A stretch of 64,000 nt of DNA from an uncultured Candidatus Saccharibacteria bacterium (GCA_964357615.1 CAYHMC010000003.1:34678-98677); one strand, 5' to 3'; shown: positions 9,921 to 26,639, counted from the stretch's first letter. A program made the numbers and translations. Notes: generated by a model not told the origin, from the sequence alone.

Positions 9921-9971
9921 ATAGCTATTATATAACGAATAACAGCAATTTAGTTACAAAAAAAGACCGCC

Positions 9972-10124
9972 TCAGTTGTTCTGGGCGATCCGGTGAAGTT
10001 CGCGCTTTTCTTGTCTGCGGTCATAGCCGTGCTTTCCTTTCTTAGTGGAATGATATCCACCAGTTTGTCTTGGTAGTGGAACACGCATCATTGCAAGCGG
10101 ATTCTTTGCTTTTACTTTTTTCAC
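9972..10124 (-). CDS. Small basic protein (50 aa, GTG start), GC-rich cassette 1 gene A
   Basis: SD GAAGGAGG sits 4 nt before the GTG start. ORF is MKKVKAKNPLAMMRVPLPRQTGGYHSTKKGKHGYDRRQEKRELHRIAQNN. An intrinsic terminator (GATCGCC…GGCGGTC plus T7) follows the stop. Not in the ORF track (<60 aa). Confidence 0.4.
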   Translation of the reverse strand: MKKVKAKNPLAMMRVPLPRQTGGYHSTKKGKHGYDRRQEKRELHRIAQNN

Positions 10125-10459
10125 TTTTCCTCCTTCGGTAAGTCGTAGCTTTAGCGAAGGTTACCCTTCATTAGTTTTTCTACTAGCTATAGTCTCTCCC
10201 TTTCAAAATCCACATTTAAACATGAACTTTAAAAGAAGCCCGAGGGACAAAACAGAGATGCGATTTCTCTGATGTGTCACTCGGGGTATAAATCGCGCAG
10301 TCCGCATACTTGATTGCAATCAAGTAGTTGCGGTTGACAGTGGTTACCGTGTGAATCTTGCAAAATGCACACAGATGCCTCCACTGCCTAACTCCTCTCA
10401 TTTCATCGCAAGGGTTGGCACGGTTTGGATTGGCTGCGCAACCAACCACCCGTAGATTT

Positions 10460-10714
10460 CTATTTGCGACGCTTGCGACTCTTGCCACCGCCACTCTTCA
10501 ATCCTTGAACCATCATCTGGAAACCTACGTAGATGATCCCAAGAATCACCACGTAGTTCAAAATGTGCTCGAGGAGTGGAGTTATGTGGTTTACAGCCAC
10601 AATTCCAAGTCCCGGAACCACAGAGAGGAACACAAGGACGAGAAACCCAATCGTCCAGAGACCTCTGGGAGGAAAGAAAAGATATCTTCCCCATGCTTCG
10701 AAAAAATCTCTCAT
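10460..10714 (-). CDS. Small membrane protein (84 aa, two TM helices), cassette 1 gene B
   Basis: SD GAGGAG sits 8 nt before the ATG. Two hydrophobic helices and a basic C-terminus. GC-rich codon usage unlike the flanking genes. Confidence 0.45.
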   Translation of the reverse strand: MRDFFEAWGRYLFFPPRGLWTIGFLVLVFLSVVPGLGIVAVNHITPLLEHILNYVVILGIIYVGFQMMVQGLKSGGGKSRKRRK

Positions 10715-11064
10715 ACTCTTTTCTCCTCGCTCAAATTTTTATTTGAGCTGTTATTGGTTTTTGATGTGCTGTCATTGCTTCCTTTCAAAATATTTATTGA
10801 GTTAAATATTTTGAAAGGAACCCGAGAGAGTCGACCGGCAATTTCTTGCTCGGCTCGCTCCCTCGGGAAAACGGGTTTTTCTCCGGCTATAAACCCGAAA
10901 ACGGTTCTGCTTTTTTTTGAGTCCGAGAGGGGGATCGGCCCTTCACAGCTGGCTTCTGCCCTCTCGGTGGTAGGTTTTTGCTGAAAACCTTTCCCCAAAA
11001 CAGCGCGCGCAATCCAGGTCAGGCACCTGGGAGCAGGAAGGATTTGGAGTCGTTTAGCACTCCG

Positions 11065-11298
11065 TTATCCTGCTCGTTCGCTTTGAGTCCGGAATGGACC
11101 CCTCACCCGACCCGGGCGAGCAAGCCTATCGTCCTGAACGAATCGGCATGGCAGCGAACCGCCTACATTCTGCATCGAGTGGCCAAACTCGTATGCAGAC
11201 CTCTGCTGAACACATGGGATTTTCCCCTGTGACCCCGTACCCGGATGGCTGCGCGCGTCCATCTGTACAGGAATTAAGATTTTTCTTCGGTAAGCCAT
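11065..11298 (-). CDS. Questionable small ORF (77 aa), cassette 1 gene C; start lies inside the repeated leader element and has no SD
   Basis: Open frame in GC-rich DNA. The region is full of hairpins and may instead be non-coding. Confidence 0.2.
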   Translation of the reverse strand: MAYRRKILIPVQMDARSHPGTGSQGKIPCVQQRSAYEFGHSMQNVGGSLPCRFVQDDRLARPGRVRGPFRTQSERAG

Positions 11299-11578
11299 AG
11301 CTTTAAACGAAGGCTACCCTAATTTCTGTACAGATGATTTACATACCTACTTAAAAAATTTAGCGAAGAACTTTTCTGTTTCGTCCTGAGCTTGTCGAAG
11401 GACTCATCAGTACGAGCATACACTCGTAGACAGAAAGGAGTTTTAAGGTCTCCTTAAACCCTACGCTGTGGTCTCGCTCATGCTTATCAAAAAGTTTGGC
11501 TAGAACTTTTATGTTCTGCTAATGCAGAACTTTTGCATGAATCCCCACTTACGTCTGCGCAAACGGCCAGAGCAACCC

Positions 11579-11857
11579 TTAACCGATACTCAGGTCAAGT
11601 ATTTGTCCGACGTAATCCTTAACATCAACACCTTGCGGTGGAGCGCCAAGAACCACGTACAGACAACGGTCGCTGTAGGCGGATGACATAGCTCGGAAGT
11701 CTGCGCTAATATTCTTAGCCGCAAGCGTCCGACGCACATGCGCAATCCGCCTCTGGCAGGTAGGACAACCATCCGCTTCGGCTACTTCGAAAAGAATGTT
11801 GCCATTCTCCTCCAGTATCGAGCGCGGAGTTGCCCAGCCTTGCACGCGAACTTGCAT
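11579..11857 (-). CDS. Small CxxC (CPTC) protein, thioredoxin/glutaredoxin-like guess, cassette 1 gene D
   Basis: SD GGAGG sits 6 nt before the ATG, and a 7-bp hairpin (CCTCAGA…TCTGAGG) sits just 5' of the SD. The protein contains GCPTCQ. Confidence 0.4.
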   Translation of the reverse strand: MQVRVQGWATPRSILEENGNILFEVAEADGCPTCQRRIAHVRRTLAAKNISADFRAMSSAYSDRCLYVVLGAPPQGVDVKDYVGQILDLSIG

Positions 11858-12039
11858 AATTCACCTCCTTTCATGCCTCAGAGCCATCTGAGGGTTAGTT
11901 GTGAATTATAAATCCATTCTCGAAGAACTTTCAGAAAACAAAATGTTTTCCTGTTAAAACATTCCAATCTTGAAATGCTTTAACAGAAACCCGAATTTTG
12001 TCTCGGGCGGGACACTCGTTTTTCCGGATAACGAGAAAC

Positions 12040-12273
12040 CTACATCGCGAGCTGGGGCTCCTTACGAACTGGGAGTCCCAGCTGGGCGAGTTCGGCGCGA
12101 ACCTTTTGGACCAGCGGACGGTCCGGAAGATTCACTTGCAAGGTAGCTTTACAGCCCTTGCACTTGCCGACCTGACCCAAGAGAGCAAGACGAATGCCCT
12201 CTCGCGGTGAGCGATGCGGACGATTTCGATGTCCGCATTCCTCACAGTAAACATAGAATGGTTTAAAGAACAT
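12040..12273 (-). CDS. Small zinc-ribbon protein (CxxC…CxxC), cassette 1 gene E
   Basis: SD GGAGG sits 4 nt before the ATG. Cys pairs YCEECGH and KCKGCK are spaced 24 aa apart. Confidence 0.4.
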   Translation of the reverse strand: MFFKPFYVYCEECGHRNRPHRSPREGIRLALLGQVGKCKGCKATLQVNLPDRPLVQKVRAELAQLGLPVRKEPQLAM

Positions 12274-12629
12274 TCGACCTCCGATTTCAACCCTAACCTG
12301 CTATTTCTAGTCAGGATTTTACAGGGCGTGATTCCTTAAGGAGAGACCACAGCAAAAGTTCAAATTACTATTTATAACTATGCTAAACTTTTTTCTATGG
12401 CCTCCCCTAAAGGAGGCGGGAGAGATATGTTTAGGTCTGTTATTTTGTAGTTACGACCAATCATCATATCTGCACCCCATATTTATTTTCTGCGGTCATT
12501 ATACTCGATTTTTATGTATTTGTCAAGTGTCGGTGACAAACCGCTAAAATAAGCCTTATTTACTATATTTTATAAGAAAATTACTCTTTATTACTATGTC
12601 AAAATAGATAGACTTAGTTTTTAATATAC

Positions 12630-22117: not shown

Positions 22118-22579
22118 ATGATGCAAGATAAAACAGGAAACATTTTAAGCATAAACAAAAAAGCTTCATTTGATTATGAAATCATTGAAACATATGTGGC
22201 TGGCGTGCAACTTTTAGGATTTGAGGTTAAGTCTATTCGAAAAGGATCAGCGTCTTTAATTGGCGCTTTTGTTGTAGTTCGTGGTGGTGAAGTATATTTG
22301 CTAAACGCCAATATTCCCCCATATCAATCAAACAATTCTCCAAAAGATTATGAATCAACCCGTAGCAGAAAACTACTTCTCAAGAAATCAGAAATTGCTG
22401 AGTTAATTGGTAAAACAGAAAAGACTGGCTTGACACTTGTGCCACTTAAGTTGTATAATATGGGCAGTAGAATTAAGTTACAAATCGGCTTAGCGCGCAA
22501 TAAAAAGAAACATGACAAACGTGCTTCCATAAAGAAGAAAGATGTTGAGCGCGAAGTTGGGCGTAGACTTAAAGGATAA
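22118..22579 (+). CDS. smpB: SsrA-binding protein
   Basis: Typical SmpB sequence (KKASFDYEIIETYVAGVQLLGFEVKSIRKG…). The tmRNA gene follows immediately. Confidence 0.9.
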   Translation: MMQDKTGNILSINKKASFDYEIIETYVAGVQLLGFEVKSIRKGSASLIGAFVVVRGGEVYLLNANIPPYQSNNSPKDYESTRSRKLLLKKSEIAELIGKTEKTGLTLVPLKLYNMGSRIKLQIGLARNKKKHDKRASIKKKDVEREVGRRLKG

Positions 22580-22583
22580 AAAT

Positions 22584-22931
22584 GGGGATGAAAGGCCTCG
22601 ACAGGCTACTAACCTTAAAAATTGCAAGCAGAGATGTGAAATCTCTTAAAACATTCACAAAAGAATAAGTGCAAACTCATTCAACAAACAACCGGCCTTA
22701 GCATTTGCATAAGACCCATCGACGCTACTTACGCCTAATCGGTTGATCGTCGGTGTTAAATTATTAGGCTCTGTTCCCTACTCCTGCGGAGGGAATGAAT
22801 ATTGAGCGGGAAAGTGTTGTGTGCTTGGCCTCCTGGCACTTGGCACATGACACTTAAAATAATGTCAGGATAAGCTTGTAGATATTTTTAATTTTACGGC
22901 CTGGACGGCGGTTCAAATCCGCCCATCTCCA
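22584..22931 (+). ncRNA. ssrA: tmRNA (SsrA)
   Basis: 5' GGGGATGAAAGGCCTCGACAGG. Tag reading frame GCA AAC TCA TTC AAC AAA CAA CCG GCC TTA GCA TTT GCA TAA gives ANSFNKQPALAFA. 3' tRNA-like end GGCGGTTCAAATCCGCCCATCTCCA. Confidence 0.85.
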
Positions 22932-22943
22932 CAAACTAAAAGA

Positions 22944-22972
22944 TCGCCCATTACAGGGCGGCTTTTTGTTTT
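22944..22972 (+). terminator. Intrinsic terminator of ssrA
   Basis: Stem TCGCCC…GGGCGG followed by TTTTTGTTTT. Confidence 0.6.
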
Positions 22973-23073
22973 ATGAGTGGATTTGAACGGGAAGGGGGTC
23001 GGGGGAACTCCTGTTTCCCCGTGGCGGAAGTTTTGAAACCGATGGGTTTCAAAAAATTTATAAAGTAAATTTG

Positions 23074-23095
23074 TTCAAATCCCCCATCTCCACCA
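23074..23095 (+). repeat. Direct repeat of the ssrA 3' end (att-like scar)
   Basis: TTCAAATCCCCCATCTCCACCA compared with the ssrA 3' end TTCAAATCCGCCCATCTCCACA (21 of 22 positions match, one indel). It lacks the 5' half of the T-stem, so it is a fragment and not a gene. Confidence 0.6.
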
Positions 23096-23134
23096 GATAA
23101 AATTGCTCGACTTTATATTGGGTGATTTTTAATA

Positions 23135-23163
23135 TATTGACTTTATAGATAAAATATAGTATA
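23135..23163 (+). promoter_or_regulatory. Consensus sigma70 promoter TTGACT-17-TATAAT (cassette 2, P1)
   Basis: Exact -35 and -10 hexamers with a 17-nt spacer. Confidence 0.55.
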
Positions 23164-23215
23164 ATTTATACAGTTCAGAAAACGCGCTATTGGCGCCCAC
23201 AAACAAGGAGAACGA

Positions 23216-23392
23216 ATGACAACCGCACAAGCAATGAGCGACTACAACACCAAGTGCTATGCAGCTGCACTTGGTCTTCCGGAAAACGCAGGGCTTCGAG
23301 CTGTAATGGACGAGATTAGCTCGCGCCGAGAAAAGGGTGAGCCCATTCCCACCCTGCGAGAGATCTTCGCAGCGCGCAACCAGAAGCGCTAG
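23216..23392 (+). CDS. Small hypothetical protein (58 aa), cassette 2 gene 1
   Basis: SD AAGGAG sits 6 nt before the ATG. GC-rich codons. A terminator follows. The antisense 105-aa ORF on the track is rejected. Confidence 0.45.
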   Translation: MTTAQAMSDYNTKCYAAALGLPENAGLRAVMDEISSRREKGEPIPTLREIFAARNQKR

Positions 23393-23433
23393 AAATATTA
23401 TTTCCCCAACCAAGCCCAGCATCCCCTGCTGGC

Positions 23434-23470
23434 AGACCCATCTCACGGTGGGTCTTCTTTTTTTTATTTT
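23434..23470 (+). terminator. Intrinsic terminator
   Basis: Stem AGACCCA…TGGGTCT followed by T9. Confidence 0.6.
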
Positions 23471-23586
23471 AAATTGACTTAATACTTTTTTATAGTAAGC
23501 TTTGAAAAGAAAAGTGATTTTATATCACTTAAAAAACACTAGGAAACAAATATGAGCACTACAAAGCAACGCGGGAGGAATGACAG

Positions 23587-23859
23587 ATGGGGTCTAAAGA
23601 TAGAGCTGGAATTTTAATTCGCAAAGCCCGCGTTAAAGCCGGTGATTATGGCAGTTGGAAAATTGCCAAAAAACACGACGGCATGGAAATATGGATTGTC
23701 GCAGAGAAACCAGTACACAAACGCTTTCGAAATCCTCGTGGTCAAACATCCGAGGGATTAGTATATCGCCGTCTCGATGGACTCGTCGCTCGAGCAGAGT
23801 ATCTTGAGCTTACAGATGAATTTGCGGTGTACAATCCAGACAATGCTGGCCATGCATAA
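23587..23859 (+). CDS. Hypothetical protein (90 aa), cassette 2 gene 2
   Basis: SD GGGAGG sits 7 nt before the ATG. GC-rich. A terminator follows. Confidence 0.45.
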   Translation: MGSKDRAGILIRKARVKAGDYGSWKIAKKHDGMEIWIVAEKPVHKRFRNPRGQTSEGLVYRRLDGLVARAEYLELTDEFAVYNPDNAGHA

Positions 23860-23889
23860 AGTAGTTACCCGACTAATCCTATTTCGTCC

Positions 23890-23927
23890 CCCGTTATATC
23901 TTCGCATCTAACGGGTTTTTTATTTTT
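23890..23927 (+). terminator. Intrinsic terminator
   Basis: Stem CCCGTT…AACGGG followed by T6ATTTTT. Confidence 0.6.
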
Positions 23928-23993
23928 ATAAAATCTATTTATTGCTATAAGAATTTATTCCATAGCTGATATTTCTATTAACTTTGCTTGATA

Positions 23994-24021
23994 TTGACTT
24001 TTTGATAAAAATTAGTATAAT
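23994..24021 (+). promoter_or_regulatory. Consensus sigma70 promoter TTGACT-16-TATAAT (cassette 2, P3)
   Basis: Exact hexamers with a 16-nt spacer. Confidence 0.5.
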
Positions 24022-24080
24022 GTTAAAAGCAAAAAGGCATTGTAGCTACATCGCACCCTAAAAACCAAAAGGAGAACTGA

Positions 24081-24221
24081 ATGGATGGGAGCTTGATTGT
24101 TCCAATTATTGTCTTTGCTGTTGCGGTCATTTTTTTTGGATGGTGTCGCTGGGTGCTAGACACAAAGCAACCACATCGCCTCAAAAGACTTAGGGACAAT
24201 TGGAAGGTTATTCCCGATTAG
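24081..24221 (+). CDS. Small membrane peptide (46 aa, one TM), cassette 2 gene 3
   Basis: SD AAGGAG sits 6 nt before the ATG. ORF is MDGSLIVPIIVFAVAVIFFGWCRWVLDTKQPHRLKRLRDNWKVIPD. Confidence 0.35.
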   Translation: MDGSLIVPIIVFAVAVIFFGWCRWVLDTKQPHRLKRLRDNWKVIPD

Positions 24222-24255
24222 CAAAAAGAAACCAAAAACCAGACGGAGGTAAAGA

Positions 24256-24564
24256 ATGCCATACATCGTCGCGCTCAGATACACCAAGGGAGCTGGTGGC
24301 TACTGCGGAGTAGTTACCTGGACACAGTTTCCGTCCAAAGAAGAGTTCGATAAGGTTCGAAAACAATTCCTTAATAGTTCCAATCAGGAAGTCGTCGAAG
24401 AGGGCATCACGGACGAGCGCGCCATTGAGCTCTCTAAGCAAACGCCAGCCGAATGCCGCATCAATGCCGCCGTCGAGGAGTCTCGAATCCCCGGCACCAA
24501 TTTAGTCGATGGCGAAGCGCTCAGTCATCATCTAACAAACGCAATTCTCGCTGAAATTTTATAA
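24256..24564 (+). CDS. Hypothetical protein (102 aa), cassette 2 gene 4
   Basis: SD GGAGG sits 6 nt before the ATG. Co-oriented with the 46-aa peptide 35 nt upstream. Confidence 0.45.
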   Translation: MPYIVALRYTKGAGGYCGVVTWTQFPSKEEFDKVRKQFLNSSNQEVVEEGITDERAIELSKQTPAECRINAAVEESRIPGTNLVDGEALSHHLTNAILAEIL

Positions 24565-24650
24565 TTCAAAGTTCAATCACCAATAAGAAGCTCACCTACT
24601 TCAATGCGGTTGGGCTTATTTTTTTTATTTATTATATATTTAAAACAATC

Positions 24651-24678
24651 CATATAAATTTGACAATTCTAAAAAAAA
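24651..24678 (+). promoter_or_regulatory. Consensus sigma70 promoter TTGACA-16-TATAAT (cassette 2, P5)
   Basis: Exact hexamers with a 16-nt spacer. Confidence 0.55.
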
Positions 24679-24726
24679 TTATATAATTACACCGAGAACT
24701 TTGAAGCAGGTGGCTTTGTAACCCCT

Positions 24727-25122
24727 TTGAAAAATAAGGGTGGAAATGAGGCGGAGGCTATGGAGCGTCAAGTAAAGATGTGGGCGGATACCGAAACCAA
24801 AAACGTTATTCTTGTGAGTCCTGATGGCACATGTGTCCATTCAACACTTATTCGCATCGTTGCGTACAAAGTAACGCTTGATGTCACAATCGCCCCAGGA
24901 CAGAATGGCGTTCCAGAAAGCATTGAAGATGCCGAAGTCGAAAGACTCGTGCTCGAGTTCTACTCCACTGAAATTCTACCAGGAGAATCCTTGGATGAAT
25001 TATTGTTTAGACTTGCGAACAAAGATAATAATTTCATTAGTCCAGAAACCGAAGAACTGCTTAATGCTGTCTGCAATGAAGGCAATATAATTATGCTTGG
25101 AAGCAGAGATTTTTTTATCTAA
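24727..25122 (+). CDS. Hypothetical protein (131 aa; alternative start at ATG 24760 with SD GGAGG), cassette 2 gene 5
   Basis: GC-rich ORF followed by a terminator (CCCACC…GGTGGG at 25136..25164). Confidence 0.45.
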   Translation: MKNKGGNEAEAMERQVKMWADTETKNVILVSPDGTCVHSTLIRIVAYKVTLDVTIAPGQNGVPESIEDAEVERLVLEFYSTEILPGESLDELLFRLANKDNNFISPETEELLNAVCNEGNIIMLGSRDFFI

Positions 25123-25223
25123 ACGATTACCAAAACCCACCCTTACATAGGTGGGATTATTTTATTAATTGAAGTTTTTACAACTTATAAAATATAACTT
25201 TCCGTGTTACTCTTAAAAAACAT

Positions 25224-26639
25224 ATGATACAACCAAACAGCACCAAGGTTAAAATCGTGGCAACACTAGGTCCATCAACCGACACCGTAAAGAATATAAA
25301 TAAAATAATTCAGGCTGGAGTTAGAATTGTTCGTATAAATTTTTCACATGTTTCTTCGTACAAAGACGCAAAAAAACTTGTTGACAACGTTAGAATCGTA
25401 GAAAAGACTACCAAAAGACCAATAGCAATTTTAGGAGACCTAGCAGGACCCAAAATACGCATTGGTAATATAGATGGAAATCCAGAACTTAAAAGCAATA
25501 AAATTTTTATATTTCACACAAAAAAAATTACGGGCACCAACGAAGCAACTTCTTTAAACTATCCGAAAGTATTAGAAAACTTAAAAATTGGAAGTGAAAT
25601 TTACTTAGGTGATGGAGATATAAAGCTAAGTGTAATAAGCAAATCTAGAGACGAAGTTAGGGCAAGAGTTCAGGTTGGTGGAATTCTTCGTTCTCGAATG
25701 GGATTTTCAGCCATAGGAATAAAAAGGCCCACGCTTTCGCTTCAGAAAAAAGATATTGCGGATATAAAAACATTGGTATCTCTTGGAATTGATGCTCTAG
25801 CAATTTCTTTTGTTGAAGACGAAAATGACATACATCAAGTAAGAAAATTATTGCCTAAAAATAACCCCCCATTAATTTTTGCGAAAACTGAAACCGAAAA
25901 TTCAGTGAAAAACGCTGAAAGTATAATTGATGCAGCCGACGGCCTTTTAATTGCAAGGGGTGATTTAGGATTTTCCGTGCCAATTGCTGAACTACCATTT
26001 ATTCAAAAGAAATTAATAAATCTTGGTTTAGAAAAATCAAAACCAGTTATAACTGCAACCCAAATGCTTGAGTCTATGATAAAGAGTCCTTATCCAACAA
26101 GAGCAGAGGTTACTGATGTTGCAAAAGCTATTTTGGATGGCTCAGACTGCGTGATGTTATCAGGAGAAACAGCCAATGGAAAATTTCCTGAAGAAACTGT
26201 AAAAATGATGTCTCACATTATAAGACGCGCAGAAAAAGAAATAGTAAATCCTCTTAAATTCCCAAAAGCAAAATCTGTTGCAGATACGGTAAGCGCAAGT
26301 GCAATACAGGCCACAGAACAAGTTGATGGAAAACTCATTGTAGTTTTTACGGATAGCGGATCTACCGCAAGACGCCTTGCGCGCCACAGAGCGACTTATC
26401 CAATCATAGCGCTTACTCCAAACAAAATTACATTTAGACAATTAAGATTTACATGGGGTGTATTTCCTTATTTAATTAATAAAACTCAAAATTTTGACAC
26501 TATATTAGTAGAGGCAAGAAAATTCGCAATGAGTAATGGAATTTGTAAATTAAAATCTGGTGATTTATATGTTATAAGCGCTGGACTACCACTCGGAAAA
26601 CCAGGGACTACAAACTTGCTACTAGTACAAAAAATATAA
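25224..26639 (+). CDS. pyk: Pyruvate kinase
   Basis: KIVATLGPS at the N-terminus, the K+/Mg2+ site region and MVARGDLG-like motifs (IARGDLGFSVP). Length 471 aa. Confidence 0.9.
   Translation: MIQPNSTKVKIVATLGPSTDTVKNINKIIQAGVRIVRINFSHVSSYKDAKKLVDNVRIVEKTTKRPIAILGDLAGPKIRIGNIDGNPELKSNKIFIFHTKKITGTNEATSLNYPKVLENLKIGSEIYLGDGDIKLSVISKSRDEVRARVQVGGILRSRMGFSAIGIKRPTLSLQKKDIADIKTLVSLGIDALAISFVEDENDIHQVRKLLPKNNPPLIFAKTETENSVKNAESIIDAADGLLIARGDLGFSVPIAELPFIQKKLINLGLEKSKPVITATQMLESMIKSPYPTRAEVTDVAKAILDGSDCVMLSGETANGKFPEETVKMMSHIIRRAEKEIVNPLKFPKAKSVADTVSASAIQATEQVDGKLIVVFTDSGSTARRLARHRATYPIIALTPNKITFRQLRFTWGVFPYLINKTQNFDTILVEARKFAMSNGICKLKSGDLYVISAGLPLGKPGTTNLLLVQKI

Follow-up and report, generated by a model that had tools for sequence, protein, structure and literature searches.

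An array of small GC-rich gene cassettes and a separate 123-nt miniature element behind ssrA in a groundwater Patescibacterium

Background

Tandem genomic islands behind ssrA, the gene for transfer-messenger RNA (tmRNA), have been described in Dehalococcoides, where insertion occurs in the T-loop of a single-copy ssrA, direct repeats of about 20 bp from the ssrA 3′ end bound the units, and the units are stacked by accretion; their content varies between strains, and integrase-less 'cis-mobilizable' members exist (McMurdie et al. 2011, PMC3146451). This paper deals with a comparable locus in a stretch of 64,000 nucleotides (nt) from an uncultured bacterium (CAYHMC010000003.1:34678-98677 of GCA_964357615.1). 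The whole of this stretch is referred to as the window, and positions are counted from its first base unless a contig is named. Here the interval between ssrA and pyk appears to contain two separate things at one insertion hotspot, the ssrA 3′ end: a 123-nt miniature element at 22973-23095, and an array of small gene cassettes rich in guanine and cytosine (GC) at 23100-25165.

The array resembles the Dehalococcoides islands in its apparent T-loop target, its ssrA-end repeats, the stacking of units downstream of the gene, the variable content, and the presence of units that have no integration module. Its units measure 0.4-0.9 kb, whereas the Dehalococcoides islands measure 10-30 kb; the cargo of the array is rich in GC although the host has low GC, in contrast to the vcr island of Dehalococcoides, which has low GC itself (PMC3146451). 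Unlike those islands, each unit contains a single tiny gene or a pair of them, with a consensus promoter and a terminator of its own, the repeats are decayed, and no DsiB-type serine recombinase or integrase is found in the locus.

Phage morons are genes of foreign composition for small accessory proteins, each an autonomous unit with a promoter and a terminator. The cassettes are likewise autonomous units of foreign composition that encode small proteins, but they have no flanking phage genes or prophage context and no homologues in phage records or viral contigs. Integron cassettes are promoterless, end in attC, and require IntI and attI. As in integrons, small exchangeable units are gathered at one site, short remnants of recombination sites are present, and the first slot appears to turn over fastest; unlike integron cassettes, the units have their own promoters and terminators and are separated by copies of the ssrA end, and no intI was found in the region.

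Composition and expression signals of the cassettes

The reading towards which the evidence leans, with modest confidence, is that the interval holds an accretion array of small self-expressing cassettes at an ssrA hotspot without an integrase, that the genes come from a GC-richer pool of groundwater Patescibacteria, and that the 123-nt element in front is a separate entity. Five small open reading frames (ORFs) on the plus strand, P1 to P5, lie between ssrA and pyk (Table 1), as the first-pass annotation had described, except that the last is more likely to encode 120 amino acids (aa) than 131, since its ATG stands behind GGAGG and matches the public gene call. The window as a whole is low-GC DNA (GC 0.355), and its 41 long ORFs have a GC content of 0.354 ± 0.025 (maximum 0.409) and a GC content at third codon positions (GC3) of 0.261 ± 0.026 (maximum 0.317), so that each of the five cassette ORFs is an outlier. 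The spacers between these ORFs are host-like (GC 0.28-0.39). The foreign composition noted at first pass thus holds for every ORF, whereas the uniform 50-55% GC given there does not (range 41-56%).

Three promoters of consensus type, also reported at first pass, match the sigma-70 consensus at 11, 11 and 12 of 12 positions. Sites with at least 11 matches number nine on the two strands of the 64 kb, three of them within these 2.1 kb; one of the other six is the probable ssrA promoter within smpB, and another drives a second GC-rich patch that is described below. P2 is preceded by a weak site only (23468, 9 of 12 matches). Clean intrinsic terminators had been noted as well, and four structures consisting of a hairpin and a U run (-10 to -23 kcal/mol) are found after P1, P2, P4 and P5, which therefore define four transcription units: P1, P2, P3-P4 and P5. 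Each of the four cassettes would comprise one or two small ORFs with a sigma-70 promoter and a Shine-Dalgarno site in front and an intrinsic terminator behind, and would probably be expressed strongly and constitutively.

Copies of the ssrA 3′ end

A second copy of the end of ssrA had been pointed out behind the gene, and it is real: GTTCAAATCCCCCATCTCCAC at 23073-23093 occurs once in the window, was matched in 0 of 100 shuffles, and equals the segment from the ssrA T-loop to the 3′ end minus 1 nt (10 + 11 exact bases). Up to position 23095 this copy, D1, runs on into ...CCA, which is not encoded by ssrA, the T-arm of which reads GGCGG-TTCAAAT-CCGCC. The first-pass annotation took the repeat for the boundary of an inserted cassette. 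It lies, however, between ssrA and the genes, and therefore ssrA and the repeat bracket only about 140 nt and not the cassette. Nor are these 140 nt an island remnant; they are instead a conserved structured element that is found behind tRNA genes in many metagenomes.

When ssrA 3′ ends are aligned with the junctions of this locus and of three sister genomes (L002, L082 and L088), copies of the ssrA-terminal TCCACA together with its flank, AAATAAAAAT, are found between units. D1 is present in the window, L082 and L088, and a second copy, D2 (GTGTTCAAACTTTTTTCTATGATGTCCAC...), is clear in L002, L082 and L088 and faint in the window, where its assignment is tentative. In L088 an exact direct repeat of 19 nt, TCCACAAATAAAAATAACC, stands on either side of the first cassette and matches the ssrA end together with its flank. 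In the window it is only the P1 unit that stands between ssrA-end copies (D1 and the decayed D2).

Such copies are what repeated insertion into ssrA would leave. Each integrase-less insertion into the T-loop would have displaced the previous ssrA 3′ end, giving D1 and D2, and the genes would have been supplied from a GC-rich pool of small proteins circulating among groundwater Patescibacteria; the outer units, P2 and P3-P4, would be old and selected, and the ssrA-proximal P1 would occupy a replaceable slot of fast turnover. This insertion mechanism is deduced from scars only: none of the ORFs here has a match among recombinase families, and no integrase (as had been noted at first pass), other recombinase, reverse transcriptase or transposase lies in or next to the region in the window.

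The locus in sister genomes

The relatives of the SmpB protein encoded in the window are those of Nomurabacteria, Paceibacteria and Patescibacteria metagenome-assembled genomes (nearest 87% identity), and the host is therefore an uncultured Patescibacterium, of the Nomurabacteria/Paceibacteria type and with a single-copy ssrA. L002, L082 and L088 have SmpB proteins about 87% identical to that of the window. L002 and L088 are syntenic with the window on either side of the region, and L082 upstream of ssrA only; the downstream region of L082 is expanded, and synteny is not regained there within the locus. The comparison of relatives that had been proposed at first pass shows that the locus between ssrA and a conserved 161-aa gene is variable, its content being different in each genome, with small GC-rich ORFs directly after ssrA. 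In L002 three membrane ORFs are followed by one that is zinc-ribbon-like and by a P3 homologue; in L088 there is a LAGLIDADG endonuclease gene, followed by a 124-aa ORF, a 77-aa ORF, a P3-like/P2 ORF and a P3 homologue; and in L082 there are a 5′-nucleotidase gene, a P4 homologue and an IS1595 transposase gene, with P3-like, membrane-protein and P2 genes further on.

Gene families recur across this mosaic: L082 and L088 share P2 with the window, L082 also shares P4, and P3 is common to all four genomes (with homologues in L002, L082 and L088). A nearly identical promoter comes first after ssrA in the window, L002 and L088, where its cargo is, respectively, the 58-aa ORF, the three membrane ORFs and the 124-aa ORF, and counterparts in L002 align with Terminator 1, with the P3 gene and with Terminator 3. 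The GC3 of the cassette genes is 0.45-0.61 in most copies (the window, L082, L088 and homologues in L092) against about 0.26-0.30 in the host, and the P2 of the window (GC3 0.34) alone looks drifted toward host composition. In L092, another Hainich Patescibacterium with a contig GC of 0.44, a P2 homologue with a GC of 0.58 stands behind the same type of terminator.

Further features of these loci can be listed in their own right. The expanded region of L082 (8856-13244) contains the 5′-nucleotidase-like gene, on the minus strand, and the IS1595-family transposase gene amid small GC-rich ORFs. In the window, pyk (25224-26639) is of native composition, yet L002 and L088 lack it here and have the conserved 161/166-aa gene straight after the cassettes; the interval downstream of ssrA may therefore also gain housekeeping genes by rearrangement. 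The LAGLIDADG homing-endonuclease gene of L088 (1011-1463; Pfam LAGLIDADG_3, 25.1 bits, cut-off 22.5) has a host-like GC of 0.32 and lies between ssrA and a displaced ssrA-end copy that fits the ssrA end of another genome better than that of L088, which suggests that the ssrA 3′ end of L088 may have been replaced through endonuclease activity.

The five proteins

No significant match was obtained for any of P1-P5 in Pfam, PHROGs, NCBIfam or PADLOC, in agreement with the first-pass impression that they belong to no known family. PHROGs gave nothing below E 0.05, the sole PADLOC hit (Cas2 to P4, E 0.043) is not significant, and PDB sequence profiles gave nothing below E 0.3. The anti-defence or toxin roles mentioned at first pass are guesses to which PADLOC lends no support. 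The phage or plasmid relationship that had been considered found no support: tblastn of the cassette proteins against 50,697 phage records gave no match and against 72,556 plasmid records one insignificant match (E 0.8), and scans of IMG/VR with the P2 profile, the P4 profile and P1 gave none. P1 has no homologue in the searches run, which included no deep protein search for P1 alone, and its 90% identity cluster consists of P1 only. P5 is an ORFan, with no relative but itself among 1.84 billion representative proteins.

Four homologues of P4 were found (55-62% identity), one of them in a sister genome, also downstream of ssrA, and the other three on contigs of about 50% GC, where P4 looks native because the GC of the gene equals that of the contig. 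The 24 homologues of P2 have a strongly conserved core and include those of the sister genomes; others are located on contigs of 71-73% GC, which are plainly not Patescibacteria, in conserved synteny beside a GFO/IDH/MocA oxidoreductase gene. These contexts of P4 and P2 point to donors of higher GC. Between P2 or P4 and their sister copies, nonsynonymous divergence (pN) is 0.17-0.28 and synonymous divergence (pS) 0.67-0.80, with a dN/dS ratio of about 0.1-0.15 (about 0.1 for P2). This difference identifies P2 and P4 as real genes, which are under purifying selection and whose synonymous sites are saturated. A view of the five genes as one recently inserted unit is not supported; they form four transcription units of different ages.

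The structure models of P2 and P4 are confident, and P2 is predicted to fold as a small beta-barrel. P3, a single-pass peptide with a basic tail, was considered as the toxin of a type I toxin-antitoxin pair, in which an antisense RNA overlaps the gene of a small hydrophobic peptide; promoter-like sites near it on the minus strand (24705 and 24658) are weak only. In L088 a P3-like peptide continues in frame, without a stop codon, into the P2 homologue. Because both read as one ORF in that genome, it may be guessed, with low confidence, that these are small envelope-associated accessory proteins and that a P3-type membrane peptide acts with the P2 beta-barrel.

Two observations on homologues may be added. 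The P3 homologue at L088 3108-3250 carries an in-frame TGA (…SIG*AYWVS…), which may represent a pseudogene, a sequencing error or a recoding event. On one of the contigs of about 50% GC (L083 10001-12977), the P4 homologue is solitary, with its own promoter and terminator, and lies about 0.85 kb upstream of an AAA_21 ATPase and DUF4276 pair that may be a defence-type module, with a 151-aa gene on the minus strand in between.

The 123-nt miniature element

The core sequence CGGAAGTNTTGAAACCNNNNGGTTTCA has 79 exact matches in metagenome contigs, two of them without the rest of the element and probably due to chance, and no match in 2.9 million viral contigs (IMG/VR). Among 83 copies of the element, 46 are located 43-134 nt 3′ of a tRNA or tmRNA gene on the same strand, and many of the remaining copies are at contig ends. 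The target tRNAs are of 13 isotypes (Pro, Asp, Leu, Gly, Met, Arg, Glu, Tyr, Ser, Ile, Lys, Gln and Cys).

Across copies the order of parts is left arm, J1 (GGGAAAGGGGTC), hairpin H1, linker (GTGGCGGAAGTATT), hairpin H2, variable hairpin H3, and a right end that consists of a T-loop-like heptamer followed by a direct copy of the 3′ end of the neighbouring gene. In the complete layout, a target copy is followed by a short spacer and an inverted target copy, and then by a structured core, which measures about 84-113 nt (83 in the window), and a further target copy. The direct repeat begins at position -15 or -16 from the tRNA end and has a length of 15-63 nt; that of L096, 63 nt with one mismatch, extends far past the tRNA gene. 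The left arm is an inverted copy of 10-22 nt of the same tRNA, covering the T-loop and T-stem and reaching into the acceptor strand, and it always ends at tRNA nucleotide 52/53, abutting J1. Arm helices of at least 7 bp are formed in 31% of copies against 5.8% for mismatched partners in a strict Watson-Crick test (a test allowing G-U pairs was not discriminating), and arm complementarity outside the T-loop is partner-specific.

The interval of about 140 nt between ssrA and the repeat is 80% identical to the same interval of L082. The ssrA T-loop of L082 is TCCAACT and not TTCAAAT, and both arms of the L082 element follow it, the left arm being the reverse complement of the T-loop of L082 itself. 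At a non-tRNA site (L134) the element has the same layout, with a 53-nt direct repeat and an 11-nt inverted repeat. As the repeat behind ssrA in the window is the right arm of the element, the element accounts for the duplicate that had been noticed at first pass. The copy in the window directly follows the ssrA terminator, with no promoter visible; in many copies elsewhere a separate terminator is already present between the tRNA and the element.

The conserved core is rich in GC and has three hairpins. Of the 8 pairs of H1, 4 have changes in both partners, and the observed values were equalled in 0 of 500 shuffles. The search pattern itself fixed H2, and its compensatory changes, which are present, were judged in divergent copies from a hidden Markov model search. 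The sequence of H3 differs completely between copies, and it still folds in both copies tested (window and L082). No protein gene recurs near the element and no reverse transcriptase is near any copy. Rfam 15 has no family that matches at gathering score, and at E values up to 10 gives chance-level hits only, and no description was found in the literature by keyword or by core sequence. In L002 and L088 the site behind ssrA lacks the element, as do the loci of the other 79 relatives.

Tandem arrays of the element were also noted (L104 1047-1700, L162 and L107). Behind one tRNA-Gly there are three copies, with the same tRNA 3′ fragment after each, and two of these units are, with their 70-nt AT-rich spacers included, diverged duplicates of each other.

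Several known kinds of element can be compared with this one. Miniature inverted-repeat transposable elements (MITEs) and short interspersed nuclear elements (SINEs) are, like it, short, non-coding, multi-copy and flanked by direct repeats. A MITE has constant terminal repeats, whereas the arms of this element match each individual target, and no transposase partner was identified; with arms that vary with the target and a duplication of 15-63 nt in place of a fixed one, assignment to the MITEs was rejected. The target duplications of SINEs are typically of variable length, as they are here, and no reverse transcriptase partner was identified for the element. In integrated phages of the CTX type, which use a folded single-strand attP, inverted and direct target-like copies flank a structured spacer of about 90 nt beside the target, as in the element; their target is dif, whereas that of the element is the T-loop of a tRNA or tmRNA, and no Xer site was identified for it. 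A tRNA or tRNA-like gene on the minus strand at 22973-23060 was considered and dismissed, as ARAGORN finds none and the would-be T-stem is unpaired, and a permuted or two-piece tmRNA or an intron in ssrA was dismissed because ssrA is complete and has its own terminator. Group I introns known from Patescibacteria tRNAs are located in the anticodon loop and are much larger (PMC13011429).

Alternative explanations

The main rival to the accretion array is that the genes are native, vertically inherited small-protein operons, with a GC content that results from amino-acid composition and from selection for high expression or mRNA stability. This would account for the synonymous divergence of P2 and P4 from their sister copies, which is about that of SmpB, for the conservation of promoter and terminator scaffolds across sister genomes, and for a GC3 near host values in the P2 of the window. 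It is nonetheless unlikely, given that content and order differ in each of four sister genomes, that GC3, on which the amino-acid sequence places little constraint, stands at 0.45-0.61 where the host value is 0.26, that homologues of P2 and P4 are compositionally native in unrelated organisms of 50% and 71-73% GC, that units are separated by ssrA-end remnants, and that P5 has no relative in so large a set of proteins. The accretion array has its own difficulties. The saturation of synonymous sites between sister copies agrees with a long vertical inheritance, and D2 can hardly be made out in the window. Behind P2, P4 and P5 there is no copy of the ssrA end, and these units could be native or could have arrived otherwise. 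Neither plain vertical descent nor a single old transfer explains why most copies keep their high GC3 despite saturation, and this combination suggests continued re-seeding from an external pool or selection on the sequence. That the locus is the remnant of one small phage or plasmid island, bounded by the 22-nt repeat and carrying the five genes in the manner of morons, is improbable. Foreign composition, moron-like promoters and terminators of its own, and the status of ssrA as a classic integration site (PMC3146451) agree with such an origin, but the repeat is upstream of all five genes, has no second copy downstream and is part of the miniature element, the units are neither of one age nor distributed alike among genomes, and the phage, plasmid, IMG/VR and PHROGs searches reported above argue against it. 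Compared with tRNA/tmRNA islands, the locus has atypical composition and variable presence among relatives and has no integrase beside the site; ssrA-end repeats do not bracket the five-gene block, and such bracketing is plausible for the P1 unit. That GC-rich reads of another organism were joined to a low-GC contig, by chimeric assembly or contamination, would explain why composition shifts so sharply at the scale of ORFs, and is scarcely credible, because the same sequence is found in independent assemblies and replicates: an independent assembly in the European Nucleotide Archive (L001) is 100% identical to the region over 2640 nt, and a third contig from another replicate (L130) covers the ssrA end through P1. 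The spacers between the ORFs are, moreover, AT-rich and host-like, and homologous scaffolds exist in three sister genomes from other samples.

For the miniature element, the layout is consistent with a non-autonomous insertion, or with the DNA of a structured RNA, with arms copied from each target. It may tentatively be regarded as an undescribed class of miniature elements of Patescibacteria, with a three-hairpin core, insertion at tRNA or tmRNA T-loops and occasionally elsewhere, target-copied arms, and a target-templated mechanism without an enzyme of its own. The left arm would derive from an inverted copy of the T-loop and T-stem of the target and the right arm from a direct copy of its 3′ end; arms copied from the target would imply target-templated insertion, possibly by fold-back, by template switching or through a folded single strand, and the T-loop-like right end suggests microhomology with T-loops. 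If this class exists, the cassettes may be the cargo-carrying counterpart of the same ssrA-directed traffic. A weakness of the account given here for the element is that its RNA and DNA function are indistinguishable; in the window it has a terminator directly upstream and no visible promoter. An explanation without mobility or an independent RNA, namely an attachment scar or a conserved host signal in the tRNA/tmRNA 3′ trailer for termination or processing, fits the position directly behind tRNA and tmRNA genes on the same strand, the abundance of hairpins and the lack of an associated mobility gene. It is quite doubtful, because a scar would not keep a core of about 70 nt 80-90% identical, with compensatory changes in its stems, across many lineages, and because many copies already have a terminator before the element, the element is missing from this site in L002 and L088, 15-63 nt of the target are duplicated, tandem arrays are formed, and the same direct and inverted layout is found at non-tRNA sites such as L134.

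Features and surroundings of the locus

The features of the region are collected in Table 1. The gene order at the locus is argS, fic, a PD-(D/E)XK gene, smpB, ssrA, the cassette region and pyk. P4 is encoded on a public contig from Hainich groundwater (well H41, 0.1 µm filter).

Table 1. Positions of signals, genes, element parts and ssrA-end copies between smpB and pyk in the window
Feature	Position	Strand	Remarks
Promoter TTGACA-18-TATAAT	22430..22459	+	perfect consensus; in 3′ part of smpB, about 125 nt upstream of ssrA, which it probably drives
ssrA (tmRNA)	22584..22932	+	tag ANSFNKQPALAFA; ARAGORN; Rfam 146.6 bits
ssrA intrinsic terminator	22944..22971	+	hairpin + U run
Element left arm ATGAGTGGATTTGAAC	22973..22988	+	inverted copy of ssrA T-loop/T-stem region
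Element core	22989..23072	+	J1 GGGAAGGGGGTC, H1, linker GTGGCGGAAGTTTT, H2, H3
Hairpin H1	23001-23020	+	
Hairpin H2	23035-23050	+	
Variable hairpin H3	23054-23072	+	
Element right arm D1 GTTCAAATCCCCCATCTCCACCA	23073..23095	+	direct copy of ssrA T-loop to 3′ end; repeat of the first-pass annotation
Promoter 1, TTGACT-17-TATAAT	23137..23165	+	11/12
P1, 58 aa	23216..23392	+	AAGGAG ribosome-binding site; GC 0.56, GC3 0.59
Terminator 1	23414..23466	+	double hairpin + U run; 86% identical to L002 11738-11806
Tentative ssrA-end remnant D2 TAATACTTTTTTATAGTAAGC	23478..23500	+	decayed; after Terminator 1
P2, 90 aa	23587..23859	+	GC 0.46, GC3 0.34
Terminator 2	23890..23921	+	hairpin + U run
Promoter 3, TTGACT-16-TATAAT	23994..24021	+	11/12
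P3, 46 aa	24081..24221	+	one transmembrane segment; FFGWCRW motif; GC 0.44, GC3 0.45
P4, 102 aa	24256..24564	+	GC 0.505, GC3 0.54
Terminator 3	24569..24626	+	homologous to L002 12211-12264 and to terminator after L088 P3 homologue
Promoter 4, TTGACA-16-TATAAT	24660..24687	+	12/12
P5, 120 aa	24760..25122	+	from ATG 24760 (131 aa from TTG 24727); GC 0.41, GC3 0.38
Terminator 4	25136..25165	+	hairpin + U run

An ORF of 20 codons at 23553-23615 has a weak ribosome-binding site and extends, in a different frame, across the beginning of P2; it could be a leader peptide or a product of chance. A second GC-rich patch is located at 9970-12530 (GC 0.45-0.50). It has no long ORF, and contains minus-strand ORFs of 50, 84, 77, 92 and 77 aa with Shine-Dalgarno sites, one of them zinc-ribbon-like and one a membrane protein, for which Pfam gave sub-threshold hits only. 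A perfect TTGACA-17-TATAAT stands at 12526-12498 on the minus strand, and the patch is in the style of the ssrA cassettes and is not beside a tRNA. The motif AAACTTTTTTCTATGG at 12385, beside this patch, is at chance level (38 of 100 shuffles) and was not used.

Significance

Patescibacteria have tiny genomes and few recognised mobile elements, and for these reasons their gain of genes is poorly understood. The locus described here would represent a compact route of gene gain, in which ready-to-express cassettes of less than a kilobase are stacked at ssrA without a resident integrase and are drawn from a pool shared by co-occurring lineages. P2 and P4 are small conserved families whose confident structure models make them open to direct study. 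The cassettes may be seen as a miniature variant of ssrA-linked accretion arrays, and the 123-nt element as the more novel object, which could serve as a marker for insertion hotspots and is a candidate for a new family of structured RNA or DNA. If mobile, it would be a simple element without coding capacity, directed at tRNA genes and with ends fitted to each target, and it would explain many of the partial tRNA duplications in these genomes.

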